From a virus, in the IMG/VR virus record IMGVR_UViG_3300009523_000001, positions 32,001 to 96,000 of that record: a DNA stretch of 64,000 nt; one strand, written 5' to 3'. The translations under genes and the position numbers were made by a program. Below are positions 15,138-37,429 of the stretch, piece by piece. Numbering within the stretch: the first letter of the stretch is position 1; each line of letters begins with the position of its first letter. The notes below the pieces were generated by a model. That model saw only the letters and a list, made by a program, of their open reading frames with translations, was not told where the DNA came from and did no database searches.

Positions 15138-17243
15138 TCAGCTCTGGGGGGTGGACACGTAGGAGACAATGCAGACGCCCGCCCCGGTCGCGCCTGTGGC
15201 GCCCGTAACCCCCACAGCAATCGCAGCGCTGGGCGTGAACGTGGTGTCCTGGTGCACGTTCTGCACGCCGCCGGTCGTGTCTTGGGGATTGTTTTGGGTG
15301 TACCCCATCAGGAGATCGGGGGTCGTCGAATTGCCCACTCTGATGAGGACGCCCGCAAGGTAGGGAGTCGTGATCTTGATGTCTGTGTCGCGCACAATGG
15401 CGTTATTGGGCGGGCTTGTTACCGAGCTCGCTCCCGTAGGGCCGAAGGTGAATCGAATCTCTTGAACCGTCCCGGACGGAGTCGCGCCCGTGGGTCCAGT
15501 TGCCGCCGCACCCGTCGGGCCCACCGAACCTGTCGGCCCAGTCACCGTCGACGCCGCACCCGTCGGCCCGGTGCCGAGTGCTCCTGTCGGCCCCGTCGGG
15601 CCGGTGACGGTCGACGCGGCACCGGTCGGACCGGTGGCCCCCGTCGGACCCGTCACTGTCGATGCAGCTCCCTGGGTTCCCGTCGGTCCCGTCGGCCCCG
15701 TAACGGTTGATGCAGCCCCCGTCGGTCCCGTGCCGAGTGCTCCCGTCGGGCCCGTCACTGTCGATGCAGCTCCCTGGGCTCCCGTGGGGCCCGTGGGTCC
15801 CGTAACGATGGACGCCGCACCCGTCGGTCCTGTGCCGATGGCCCCCGTCGGACCCGTCACTGTCGATGCAGCTCCCTGGGTTCCCGTGGGTCCCGTCGGA
15901 CCCGTCACTGTCGATGCAGCTCCCTGGGTTCCCGTGGGTCCCGTCGGGCCGGTGACGGTTGATGCAGCCCCTGTCGGTCCCGTGCCGAGTGCTCCCGTCG
16001 GCCCCGTCACTGTCGATGCAGTTCCCTGGGCTCCCGTGGGGCCCGTCGGCCCGGTGACGATGGATGCAGCCCCCGTTGGTCCCGTCACCGACGCGCCGGA
16101 AGCTCCCGTCGGCCCCGTCACCGTCGATGCAGCTCCCTGGGCTCCCGTGGGGCCCGTGGGCCCCGTAACGATGGACGCCGCACCCGTTGGTCCAGTCCCG
16201 ACGGCTCCCGTCGGTCCGGTGACGGTCGACGCAACACCCGTGGGGCCCGAAGGGCCCGTGGGTCCAGTCACGGTAGACGTCGCTCCCGTCGGGCCAGTGC
16301 CGAGTGCTCCTGTCGGGCCGGTCACTGTGGATGCGGTACCCGTTGGCCCGGTGACCGATGCACCGGTCGCTCCCGTCGGCCCGGTGACCGTCGATGCAGC
16401 ACCCGCAGGACCGGTCGCGCCCGCGCCGGTGGCGCCCGTCGGTCCGGTGGTTCCGGTCGCACCGGTGGATGATGCGGTACCCGCCGGTCCCGTGGAACCG
16501 GTCGATCCGGACGCCCCCGTCGGACCGGTGACGGCCGACGCGGCTCCGGTCGGTCCCGTGACCGTTGCCCCGGTGGATCCCGTGGGTCCCGTGACGATCG
16601 ATGCCGCTCCCGTGGGGCCCGAAGGACCCGTCGGTCCCGTGACGACGGACGGCGCGCCCGTCGGCCCCGACGCGCCCGTAGGTCCGGTTGACGCAGCGCC
16701 GGACGCACCGGTGGCTCCCGTGGCCCCTGTCGATGCAGCGCCCGTCGGTCCTGTGACGACCGATGCAGATCCCGTCGCGCCGGTCGGTCCGGTGGATGCA
16801 GAACCGGTTGCGCCTGTCGGGCCCGTGACGGCGGACGCCGCTCCCGTCGGTCCGGTGACCGATGCACCGGTGGCGCCCGTCGGTCCGGTGACTGTGGACG
16901 CTGCACCGGTCGCGCCCGTGTTGCCGGTCGGTCCAGTGGACGTGCCCCCGGTGGCTCCCGTGACGCTTGCACCGGTCGGGCCGGTCGACCCGATTCCTGC
17001 AGCACCCGTCGCACCCGTCGGCCCCGTAACGGTTGACGCCGCACCGGTCGGACCCGTCGCTCCCTTGTCTCCCGTCGGGCCGGTGGCGCCCGAGGGGCCC
17101 GTCGCGCCCATTGCCCCGGTCGGCCCGTTGCTCGGCCCCGTCGGGCCGGTGGCTCCCGTGCCGCTGCCTCCGCCGCCGCCGGTCCCGGGTGCGGTCGGGT
17201 ACGTCTCGCGCGCGGTCCGCCCGCGACCGATGATGTAGCTCAT
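15138..17243 (-). CDS. Collagen-like (GPT/GAT) fibre protein
   Basis: Long G-X-T triplet tract interrupted by STVT; N-terminal [16 protein letters not shown]; globular C-terminus. Confidence 0.9.
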
Positions 17244-17256
17244 ACGGCTCTGCTAG

Positions 17257-17285
17257 AGCCTCACGCTGCGCTCTTGACGGGTCAA
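17257..17285 (-). promoter_or_regulatory. Shared structural-gene promoter, copy 1
   Basis: TTGACC-cgtcaagagcgcagcgt-GAGGCT (17-nt spacer). Confidence 0.65.
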
Positions 17286-17607
17286 TCGAAGCTTTTTTCG
17301 GCTAGAACGTCGTCGCAGTGCGCGAGATGGGCATACCGCGGGATGCCCAGCGGAGGCCGCTAACTCATGGAATCGGCGGCTGTGTTCGCGATGCAGCCTT
17401 CGCGAGCCGCTCAAGCTGCGCTTCGTCGAGCGTGGCTCGGAGGGCGACTGCGCGGGGATTGGTTTCGTCCAACGGCTGCATGCGCGGCGGGATGTACGGT
17501 CGGCGGATCATGGCAGTCTCTTCCACGGAGGAGAACGTACCACCGGTCGCCGGCGGCGGGGTAGCGGTTGCGCGCCTCACGGCCGCTCAGGTAGTCTTCT
17601 CCCATTC

Positions 17608-35200: not shown

Positions 35201-36234
35201 GGACCCACTGAACCCGTTGGGCCGGTCGATCCCGTCGCGCCGGTGTTGGTCGCTGCGCCGGACGCTCCCGTCGGTCCCGTGCTTCCGGTCGGACCTTTGG
35301 TTCCCGTCGCGCCGGTGTTGGACGCGGTGCCTGCCGGTCCCGTTGCTCCCGCTCCCGTCGGTCCGGTGGCGCCGGTGGCGCCGGTGTTGGACGCGGTGCC
35401 TGCCGGACCCGTGGATCCCGTCGTGCCGGTCGGTCCCGTCGCACCGGTATTGGTTGCGCTACCTGCTGGGCCGGTCGCGCCCGATGCGCCCGTGGGTCCC
35501 GTGACTGTGGATGCGGCGCCCGTGGTTCCTGTCGGTCCGGTTCCGAGCGGTCCCGTCACCCCGGTCGCGCCGGTGACGGTGGATGCGGCTCCGGTTGGGC
35601 CCGTGCTTCCGGTCGGACCTTTGGTTCCTGTCGCGCCTGTGTTGGTTGCACTGCCTGCGGGCCCGGTCGATCCCGTCGATCCCGTGGGCCCCGTGACGGT
35701 GGATGCGGCTCCCGTCGGCCCAGACGCTCCCGTCGGACCGGTCCCGAGCGCTCCTGTGGCTCCCGTCGGACCGGTGATGATCGATGCTGCTCCGGTCGGT
35801 CCCGTGTTCCCGGTGGCTCCGGTGGATGCCGCCCCTGTCGGGCCTGTCACTGTCGATGCGGCACCCGTCGCCCCCGTGCTTCCGGTCGGGCCCGTGGTTC
35901 CCGTTGCGCCGGTGTTGGTGGCGCTACCCGCCGGTCCCGTGGCGCCCGACGCGCCGGTCGGTCCCGTGACGGTCGATGCGGCGCCTGTCGCTCCGGTCGG
36001 GCCGGTGGTGGACGGACCGGTCGATCCCGTCGGTCCTGTTACGGTGGATGCAGCCCCTGTTGCACCGGTCGGGCCTGTGGTGGACGGACCGGTTGCACCC
36101 GTCGAACCAGTCGCCCCGGTCATTCCGGTCGGCCCTTGGCTCGGTCCGGTCGGCCCCGTGCCACCGCCGCCCGATCCCGGTGCGGTCGGGTACGTCTCGC
36201 GTGCGGTCCGTCCGCGGCCGATGATGAAACTCAT
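32260..36234 (-). CDS. Long collagen-like fibre with two glycine-rich domains
   Basis: True start ATG 36234 ([26 protein letters not shown]); two GPT tracts, each followed by a FxVPx[11 protein letters not shown] domain. Confidence 0.9.
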
Positions 36235-36247
36235 TCGGATCTCCCTC

Positions 36248-37429
36248 TCACGCGAGCCACGCGATGCGCACTCCTCCCGAGCCTCCGTTGCCGCCCGCCC
36301 CTCCGGTGCCTGGAGTAACCGTTCCGTTGCCTCCGGCTCCGCCACCCCCGCCACCCGATCCGCTGTTGGCGACGGCGCTGTTGCCTGGGCTGCCGTTGAC
36401 CCCCGTGGTCGATCCTCCGTTACCCCCCGCCCCGCCGGTGGCCCCGTCGCCCGCACCGCCGAAGATGTTGGGTCCGCACCCACCTCCGCCGCCGCCGAAG
36501 CCGGGGGATCCGGGGGATGCAGTGCCGGTCGCGCCCCCGAGGCCGCCATGCTGCCCGGTGCTGTCGGGATTGTCGTTGCCGTCGAGGGCGGCGGTATTGC
36601 CCACGAGCAGCAGGCCCGACCCTCCTCCCGATCCACCCTGAGCGGGTGAAGTGCTCATGGGCAGGAAGTTCGTGACGGTGGTGGCGCGGGAGGTCACCGG
36701 AGGCCCTCCGCCGGGCGCTGCGGATGCGTCGCCCGATCCGATGGCGGTTCCGCCGGACGCGCCCGCTGCGACGACTAACGTGAGGGCGTGAGCCAGCGAA
36801 ACGATGGATGACTCTCCGCCGGGCGACCCGTTGGTGTTGGCCGCACCCCCCGCACCCCCCGCACCCACGGCGATCGTGAGCGAATCGGCGGGAGTCAACC
36901 CCGTCATCACCCCGGTGGCGAGCAGCGATCCGCCGCCTCCCCCTCCCCCATTGGATCCGGTTCCGCTCGTGGCTCCAGCCTGAGCTCCGGCGCCGCCTCC
37001 TCCGCCGCCGTAGATTTCGTAGCTGGCCCCCGTCACTCCTGCGGGCACCACCCACGCTCCGGTGGCTCCCGTAAAATTCAGCACGTGCAACGTGAGACCA
37101 CCAGCGCCGGTTGGTCCCGTCGATCCGGCACCGGTGGCACCCGTCGCTCCCGTAGCGCCCGTGGACGCGGCTCCCGTCGGACCGGTGGCACCCGTGCCCG
37201 ATGCGGTTCCTGCGGGACCCGTCGCGCCGGTCGGCCCCGTGACGGTGGACGCGGGGCCCGTCGCGCCGGTGGGCCCGGATCCTGTCGCTCCCGTAGCTCC
37301 AGTCGTTCCTGTTGCCCCCGACGGCCCCTGGCTCGGTCCGGTCGGGCCCGTGCCGCCTCCGCCGCCCGATCCCAGTGCGGTCGGGTACGTCTCGCGTGCG
37401 GTCCGTCCGCGGCCGATGACGAAGCTCAT
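36248..37429 (-). CDS. Short collagen-like fibre with glycine-rich domain
   Basis: [43 protein letters not shown]. Confidence 0.88.

Follow-up and report, generated by a model that had tools for sequence, protein, structure and literature searches.

A short N-terminal peptide shared by fibre-like and other proteins is a candidate docking module in an uncultured family of large bacterial viruses

The stretch of DNA analysed here, called the window below, comprises 64,000 nucleotides (nt; bases 32001-96000) of the 117,665-bp IMG/VR virus record IMGVR_UViG_3300009523_000001, which is rated 100% complete by CheckV; the G+C content is about 65%. It holds a set of minus-strand genes whose products begin with one and the same short peptide, here called the tag, and continue into fibre-like and other sequences. 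In a six-frame scan four such genes, starting at 17243, 32255, 36234 and 37429, open with MS[FY][IV]IGRGR.A.ETYPTAP, and beyond six tag or tag-like starts none was found elsewhere in the 117,665-bp record. A degenerate DNA pattern for GRGR.A.E.YP gave four matches in the window and none in 100 dinucleotide-preserving shuffles. What looked like a seventh tag shortly beyond the window, at about position 96394 of G000, proved to be a wrong-frame artefact. The genes and elements concerned are the following:

36248..37429, minus strand: P0003 (393 amino acids, aa), with the tag in residues 1-16, a Gly linker, a GXY-like stalk of about 90 residues and a Gly_rich_2 head.
32260..36234, minus strand: P0002 (1324 aa), with the tag, a stalk, a Gly-rich knob, a second stalk and a second Gly-rich knob.
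31848..32255, minus strand: P0004 (135 aa), with the tag joined directly to a small head, without a stalk.
15138..17243, minus strand: P0001 (701 aa), with the tag, about 570 residues of interrupted GPT/GAT (GXY) repeats and a C-terminal head of about 110 residues.
21559..23172, minus strand: P0005 (537 aa), with a decayed tag, MSYVIDRRRYAREY, followed by a lipoprotein-like signal, MSRTFVALVSLALLAC.
23473..23562, minus strand: a relic open reading frame (ORF) of 29 codons between P0005 and a large glycosyltransferase gene, with the tag-like start MSRIMDRGRTARV followed by a stop.
17244..17323 and 23173-23252, minus strand: homologous upstream elements before P0001 and P0005.

P0003, P0002 and P0004 are consecutive in this order, with P0003 first and gaps of 13 nt and 4 nt, and they are therefore taken to form one operon. 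Residues 122-391 of P0003 match Gly_rich_2 (PF21722) at 27.8 bits, above the gathering cut-off of 24.3, and both knobs of P0002 are 54-57% identical to this domain. Pfam Collagen (PF01391) is passed by P0002 only, at residues 392-444 (38.8 bits, cut-off 27.2), with no match in P0001 and P0003; the GXY runs in the stalks are short, with at most 10 triplets, and are regularly broken by 'ASTV'-type inserts. PHROG tail-fibre families match P0001 and P0002, and tail-fibre or tail-fibre-assembly matches are found on the repeat-rich P0001-P0003. The head of P0004 is 30% identical to a tag-bearing protein of the relative G001. An earlier note on this DNA had described stalks of zero to several hundred residues carrying different heads, and the translations bear this out, from P0004 with no stalk to P0001 with about 570 residues.

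The same note had counted five tagged starts. All five lie where it placed them, on the minus strand, and four are intact, whereas the fifth, that of P0005, is decayed and probably heads no tag-bearing fibre; a sixth start, at 23562, had been overlooked. In the P0005 copy G6, G8, Y15 and P16 are missing, and behind it come an internal Met and what looks like a signal of the lipoprotein type (..LALLAC/S; MSRTFVALVSLALLAC/S, the lipobox being judged by eye); for these two reasons the copy is probably a relic rather than a functional tag. P0005 may be a lipoprotein starting at Met24 rather than a fibre. The ORF at 23562 looks like what is left, at the 5' end, of a tag gene that was lost. The 80 nt upstream of P0001 and P0005 are identical in 59 of 84 aligned columns, including the palindromic TTGACCCGTCAAG; the two regions are thus homologous, which indicates that a 5' cassette of upstream region plus tag was copied. 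A common upstream promoter for all tag genes was considered and rejected, since TTGACCCGTCAAG stands only before P0001 and P0005 and nowhere else in the window. We propose that the copied cassette and the two relic tags are traces of recombination at a conserved 5' end.

Relatives of the virus were found through P0007, the most conserved gene of the record, which has more than 369 metagenomic homologues, none of them named, and is present at 27 IMG/VR loci. A 30-residue tag query was run against 23 related IMG/VR records, with G001 searched separately; it matched in 18 of the 23, with one to eight matches per record, and G001 holds five copies. The records without a match are G003, G005, G011, G017 and G024. 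G011 carries a variant of the tag with a one-residue insertion (MGYITGRRGRYHGETYP), G005 is a fragment that is 37% complete, and G024 (L108) has, at 19038-21975 on the minus strand, three divergent tags of the form M..xGxRxGxxSRE.YP, for example MGSLIGRPGQRSRETYP, so that the most persistent core of the tag is R-E-x-Y-P.

For the alignment, 41 unique tag ORFs were collected from the window and the fetched IMG/VR loci with a search pattern that forced G6, G8, R9 and Y15, and an exact-motif scan of metagenomes of the Joint Genome Institute (JGI) gave 39 more stretches, 37 of them unique and some on the same contigs as IMG/VR records. G6 follows the start codon at a distance of exactly five codons in 39 of the 41 unique ORFs and in 32 of the 37 unique JGI ORFs, and the remaining five of the latter have M or V one codon later. 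The consensus is M-S-x-[IV]-I-G-R-G-R-Y-A-R-E-T-Y-P, with Y or T at position 10, followed by about five variable residues and a Gly-rich linker; Gly occupies positions 22-24 in 23-26 of the 41 sequences, giving a Gly-rich hinge behind the tag. Conservation extends to the positions left free by the search pattern (R7 33/41, Y10 32/41, A11 33/41, E13 34/41, T14 32/41 and P16 39/41), and the conserved positions use all four Gly codons and all six Arg codons. Such free synonymous codon use at conserved sites argues for selection on the peptide and not on DNA or RNA.

Among 2.9 million IMG/VR contigs, exact GRGRYARETYP occurs in 17 stretches on 11 contigs, of which ten are known family members and the eleventh is a 53-kb fragment related to them through the glycosyltransferase region. 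This distribution makes the tag characteristic of one uncultured family of large bacterial viruses, and whole-gene duplication does not account for it. It is covered by no Pfam or PHROG family, and full-text literature searches, which were not exhaustive, returned no description of the lineage or the tag.

On the same data one can weigh the reading that the tag has no function of its own and is simply left over from gene conversion or recent duplication between paralogues. The tag DNA at 36234 and 37429 is identical across the 32-nt pattern match, and the copied 5' cassette of P0001 and P0005 together with the relic copies at 23172 and 23562 would suit such an origin. Relatives in which P0007 identity is as low as 59-70% nevertheless keep the tag, with free synonymous variation, and the sequences joined to it downstream are unrelated; the decay of the apparently functionless copies (P0005 and 23562) is what would be expected if the others were under purifying selection. 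The earlier note had named, as an outcome that would tell against its idea, a similarity owed purely to recent whole-gene duplication and not conserved in relatives; with the tag at residue 1 in the 18 related records and in G001, we regard this explanation as extremely improbable.

The sequences behind the tag are diverse. When the first 25 residues were removed from 40 tag proteins and the rest were compared by BLASTP (E<1e-5, low complexity masked, some ORFs being cut by locus ends), they fell into 29 unlinked groups. The downstream modules include collagen-like stalks, Gly-rich heads, many small heads and a class of about 410 aa that is tagged in several relatives and has no homologue in this genome. 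In G015/G019 (L059/L060), at 1584 on the minus strand, a 54-aa ORF directly upstream of a tagged collagen-like gene consists of the tag, a linker and one transmembrane helix; such a protein could tie a membrane to a common docking site. The tag genes of G024 adjoin lysis-type genes. Judged by sequence, the cargo resembles adsorption proteins. The suggestion of the earlier note that a common N-terminal peptide sits on interchangeable proteins agrees well with a tag that is conserved, selected at the protein level and followed by many unrelated modules.

The tag might, instead of attaching these cargos, be a handle for folding or oligomerisation that serves fibre assembly as a trimer-registration or chaperone-binding element. 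Many of the cargos probably are fibres made of three chains, and a short element at the N-terminus could bring such chains into register. The tag is, however, also found on the stalk-less P0004 (135 aa) and on the 54-aa transmembrane protein, the flexible Gly-rich linker between tag and stalk would be a poor design for setting a register, and no conserved chaperone gene was identified. We therefore consider a role of this kind quite improbable.

Another reading takes its support from the genes that lie between the tag genes:

23658..31687, minus strand: sugar-modification island, with a 1587-aa protein carrying GT2 domains and TPR, methyltransferases and an NDP-sugar epimerase.

The tag could be a recognition leader for a modifying or exporting machine, which would direct the Thr-rich stalks (14-24% Thr) to the glycosyltransferase and methyltransferases, or the proteins to export into the host envelope. 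In Bacillus spores the collagen-like BclA is glycosylated and is targeted by its N-terminal region. Yet among the four fully fetched relatives the large glycosyltransferase has matches in G022 only (28% identity), whereas all four have tags or variants of it; the sugar island does not belong to the family's core, and this makes the role of a glycosylation leader unlikely. Many tagged proteins are moreover without a Thr-rich stalk, and by eye the tag has neither a hydrophobic region nor a Sec- or Tat-type signal. Taken as a whole, a modification or export leader seems to us highly improbable.

On the plus strand, the window carries a block of genes of which most is common to four fully fetched distant relatives (44.5-59.3 kb):

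44500-59347, plus strand: conserved morphogenetic block, with a 181-aa protein, a RadC-like JAB-domain protein, a Pro-rich protein, p226, P0006, P0007, P0008 and P0009.
45446-46156, plus strand: the RadC-like JAB-domain protein.
46649-48502, plus strand: the Pro-rich, scaffold-like protein with repeated LLAMQKQLFEMMQAM helices.
52856..56242, plus strand: P0006 (1128 aa), with basic repeats ARRRP(R/K)(R/H)xARET(T/K)(T/V)VQ followed by a conserved membrane-like core (residues 430-608).
56338..57654, plus strand: P0007 (438 aa), which shows the highest conservation in the family (27 of 27 loci, 59-80% identity).
57752..58348, plus strand: P0008 (198 aa), a candidate capsid or vertex protein (27 of 27 loci, 58-84% identity).
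58361..59347, plus strand: P0009 (328 aa; 27 of 27 loci, 44-79% identity).

The membrane-like core of P0006 was found in 24 of the 27 loci, and the protein may serve to condense DNA in the core or take part in ejection. ARET occurs four times in its basic repeats, and R-[YH]-A-R-E-T is common to the tag and these four repeats, as the earlier note had partly seen when it pointed to an ARET element in both. The likeness does not hold as a family rule: RRxARE[TSA]-like repeats occur in several relatives and not in all, and the P0006 homologues of G022 and G007, which keep the tag, have no R.ARE[TSA], so that the ARET link is apparently not essential.

The shared element bears on what we see as the main rival, namely that the tag is a cleavable assembly-targeting propeptide of the type of the T4 capsid-targeting sequence (CTS), which would take proteins to the particle under assembly or to its scaffold and then be cut off, for example at A-R-E/T; the protease concerned would also process P0006, releasing small basic peptides from its ARET repeats. 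Such a propeptide would agree with the strictly N-terminal position of the tag, with the conservation of E13 and A11, and with the R-[YH]-A-R-E-T shared with P0006 and the RxARE[TSA] repeats of several relatives; and in T4, as one report describes (PMC3012670), diverse internal proteins share only the CTS that directs them to the scaffolding core. The cargo here resembles external fibres rather than internal proteins, however, and G022 and G007 have the tag with P0006 homologues that are free of R.ARE[TSA]. Conservation is no lower behind the putative cleavage point, at T14, Y15 and P16, than ahead of it. A maturation protease was not identified; the sole protease-like gene, with an S8 subtilase domain, is present in just 4 of 21 relatives and was for this reason rejected as the tag protease. 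Cleavage of this kind is on balance unlikely.

The type of virus is of importance for any site to which the tag might bind. Scans of the larger ORFs with PHROG and Pfam gave replication, methylase, toxin-antitoxin, Fic, HNH-AP2, lysis-type and sugar-modification genes, and, apart from the tail-fibre-type matches on P0001-P0003, no portal, capsid, tail tube or terminase match (50 ORFs scanned with PHROG, the larger ORFs with Pfam). Translated in all six frames, the complete record gave no hit to the terminase models PF03354 and PF03237, further models for terminase, portal or the HK97 capsid not being searched. A six-frame search with the A32 packaging ATPase model PF04665 was likewise empty, other ATPase families not being searched, and the only clear Walker A motif sits in a helicase. 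An AlphaFold2 model of P0007, built from a 74-sequence alignment obtained by a representative search, has a predicted local distance difference test score of 87.7 and is mostly beta, with a jelly-roll-like beta-sandwich. Its best structural neighbours by VIA-align are SPV1 6oj0_Z (Z 5.9, root-mean-square deviation 6.9, 122 residues aligned), PRD1 P3 1w8x_A (Z 5.7, 5.7 A, 154 aligned), HCIV-1 6h9c_D (Z 5.7), PBCV-1 (5.6) and HHIV-2 (5.5); these matches, all to capsid proteins of membrane-containing icosahedral viruses, are weak, being tied with CBM (sugar-binding), discoidin and GOLD domains, and no chain reaches Z 8. Foldseek with the P0007 model returned nothing at E<=0.001 against PDB and BFVD, and P0007, P0008 and P0009 gave nothing against PDB by sequence or profile. 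No relation of P0008 or P0009 to the P0007 profile was seen with hhalign (probability <1%), and no relatives of P0007 or P0009 are found among 50,697 GenBank phage records. By language-model features, P0007 and P0009 resemble jelly-roll capsid proteins of the small type; the scores are <0.9 and serve as leads only. P0007 is a putative major capsid protein and a candidate docking partner.

Between a tailless jelly-roll virus and a tailed phage whose hallmark genes escape recognition, we lean somewhat towards the former. SLT and Rv2525c-type hydrolase domains, the lipobox, GTG/TTG starts and one IMG/VR provirus record suggest a bacterial host. The search for this host gave two short contigs of one Binatia metagenome-assembled genome (MAG) and a 15-residue match at the end of a Polyangiaceae MAG contig, which are too weak to name it.

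The position and conservation of the tag, selection at the protein level, the diversity of the modules behind it and its restriction to this virus family are supported directly by the comparisons above. A fixed N-terminal peptide with a Gly linker, varied cargo of adsorption type and selection throughout the family fit a docking or incorporation peptide, and we favour, with moderate confidence, the reading that these approximately 16 residues are a portable virion-incorporation (docking) module; a plug-in peptide in the wider sense, the cleavable propeptide included, is likely. We infer from this that the tagged proteins are virion components and that the tag binds another protein, with candidate partners in the conserved P0007/P0008/P0009 module and a 599-aa core protein encoded at 111617-113416 of G000. 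The earlier note had placed the docking site on the capsid and named the genes of P0008 and P0009; the capsid is a possible site, and both proteins are among these candidates. The tag would head each host-recognition protein at its extreme N-terminus, with a flexible Gly/Ser/Pro linker behind it, and would bind one conserved site on the particle; the Gly-rich hinge would suit tails that splay from a trimeric stalk. Any gene that gained the tag by recombination at its 5' end would then be mounted on the particle, and recombination within the conserved 5' end could shift heads between genes.

Several points weigh against docking. No docking partner was found; prediction of a complex of P0007, P0008 and P0009 with a 34-residue tag alignment gave a score of 0.00, below the mark, which speaks neither for nor against binding. 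The PHROG tail-fibre matches rest on low-complexity GXY repeats. The 54-aa tag and transmembrane-helix protein of one relative is not a fibre. Being very short and basic, the tag could have DNA, membrane or a chaperone as its target instead, and it could be removed, given the conserved E13 within A-x-E, which we take to resemble head protease cleavage sites of the T4/phiKZ type. Finally, G003 (L076), which is 100% complete (117 kb) and has a P0007 that is 80% identical, carries, from about base 847 on the plus strand, a collagen-like ORF whose N-terminal region, at least 138 residues long, differs from that of the tagged proteins; a tag was not detected anywhere in its 117-kb record. The tag is therefore replaceable, and G003 may represent a natural swap of the tag for another anchor.

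Taken together, it is a tentative picture, which we hold with more doubt than conviction, that these viruses form a widespread lineage, so far undescribed, of tailless viruses of bacteria with large genomes (60-125 kb), jelly-roll P0007/P0008/P0009 and no terminase. A universal socket on the particle would then accept three to eight different fibres and spikes, a membrane anchor even, all by means of the same 16-residue peptide at the N-terminus.

Further genes lie close to the tag genes:

38494..38796, minus strand: a 100-aa membrane protein of no family, conserved in four of four fully fetched relatives.
37496-38430, minus strand: three tandem paralogous ORFs, each encoding about 70-76 aa (MRRK..L..K.G..QNG.PR.LID...YREH...YSGW..A.RPRD.AI.LR), flanked by the tag operon on one side and the gene of the 100-aa membrane protein on the other.
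12741-14072, minus strand: a 443-aa protein near P0001, with an apiosidase-like glycoside hydrolase and a 'putative collagen-binding domain of a collagenase' (PF13204, PF12904).
38983-43852: accessory island with, by Pfam, an HNH and AP2 homing-endonuclease-like gene, a YafQ-type toxin gene overlapped by a Phd/YefM-type antitoxin gene, and a Fic-domain protein.

The 100-aa membrane protein stands within the tag-gene cluster in G022, G007 and G024 and close to it in G013, and its neighbours in G024 include lysis genes of SLT-like and GH25-like type; it may act as a holin or belong to a membrane of the virion. No Pfam family was found for the small tandem ORFs, of which one copy was scanned. The 443-aa hydrolase may be an enzyme that rides on a stalk without using the tag.

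A short transferable mounting peptide would explain changes of host range by cassette swap and would offer a ready engineering handle. The same peptide heads at least 29 unrelated downstream modules in an uncultured family that is common in metagenomes (more than 369 homologues of the core protein), and it would mark the whole adsorption repertoire of the lineage, giving a simple sequence rule for finding such genes. Should the viruses be tailless with a jelly-roll capsid, the family would greatly extend the genome size known for bacterial viruses of this kind, and the docking arrangement, if true, would be a multiplexed bacterial-virus counterpart of the fibre-penton joint of adenovirus and the first such socket to be defined purely from sequence.

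The docking module can be compared with several known systems, of which the adenovirus fibre tail and the N-terminal peptide of KP32 RBP2 are precedents backed by experiment. In the layout of a conserved motif in an N-terminal tail, a repetitive shaft of variable length (trimeric in adenovirus) and a distal knob, the tagged fibres resemble those of adenovirus, and some adenoviruses have two fibre types with the same tail. The conserved FNPVYPY motif of the adenovirus fibre tail binds the cleft that two penton-base monomers form (PMC8156859). Beyond Y-P this motif has no resemblance to IGRGRYARETYP. Unlike in adenovirus, the host is probably bacterial, there are many more types of cargo, and a penton-like protein is just suspected (P0008/P0009).

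The T4 CTS takes its cargo into the interior of the head and is then removed by the head protease, whereas the tagged cargo here resembles external fibres and no head protease was found. Like the tag, the CTS is a short conserved N-terminal peptide and the sole common part of diverse proteins; it is enough for the loading of foreign proteins (PMC3012670). In PRD1 (Tectiviridae), a membrane-containing tailless phage, the spike P5 is a vertex fibre with a Gly-rich collagen-like shaft that is anchored N-terminally at the jelly-roll penton P31; the genome is 15 kb, there is one spike complex, and the N-terminal anchor is a domain. The anchor here differs from that of P5 in being a 16-residue peptide, and the virus is at most a possible member of the PRD1 lineage (best Z 5.7 to P3).

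A further parallel is RBP2, the secondary receptor-binding protein (RBP) of the Klebsiella podophages KP32/K11/KP34, where a short peptide at the extreme N-terminus is found on otherwise different receptor-binding proteins (PMC13352976). In KP32, deletion of the 29-residue N-terminal conserved peptide of RBP2 stopped propagation on the RBP2-specific host, from which the authors infer loss of RBP2 from the virion, and fusion of the peptide to a foreign enzyme domain gave phage growth on a new host (PMC13352976). Those phages are tailed and have one tagged RBP each, whereas here there are 4-8 tagged genes per genome, a tag of about 16 residues with probably another sequence, and no detectable terminase. 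RBP2 docks on the T4gp10-like branching domain of RBP1, a primary RBP that carries an anchor domain itself; no such branching domain was recognised here in the general PHROG and Pfam scans, no dedicated search being made. The principle of a conserved N-terminal anchor on exchangeable receptor-binding proteins is thus already known, and what is new here is the sequence of the tag, its shortness, the number of tagged genes (up to eight matches per record), the breadth of the cargo and the setting in an undescribed, widespread lineage.

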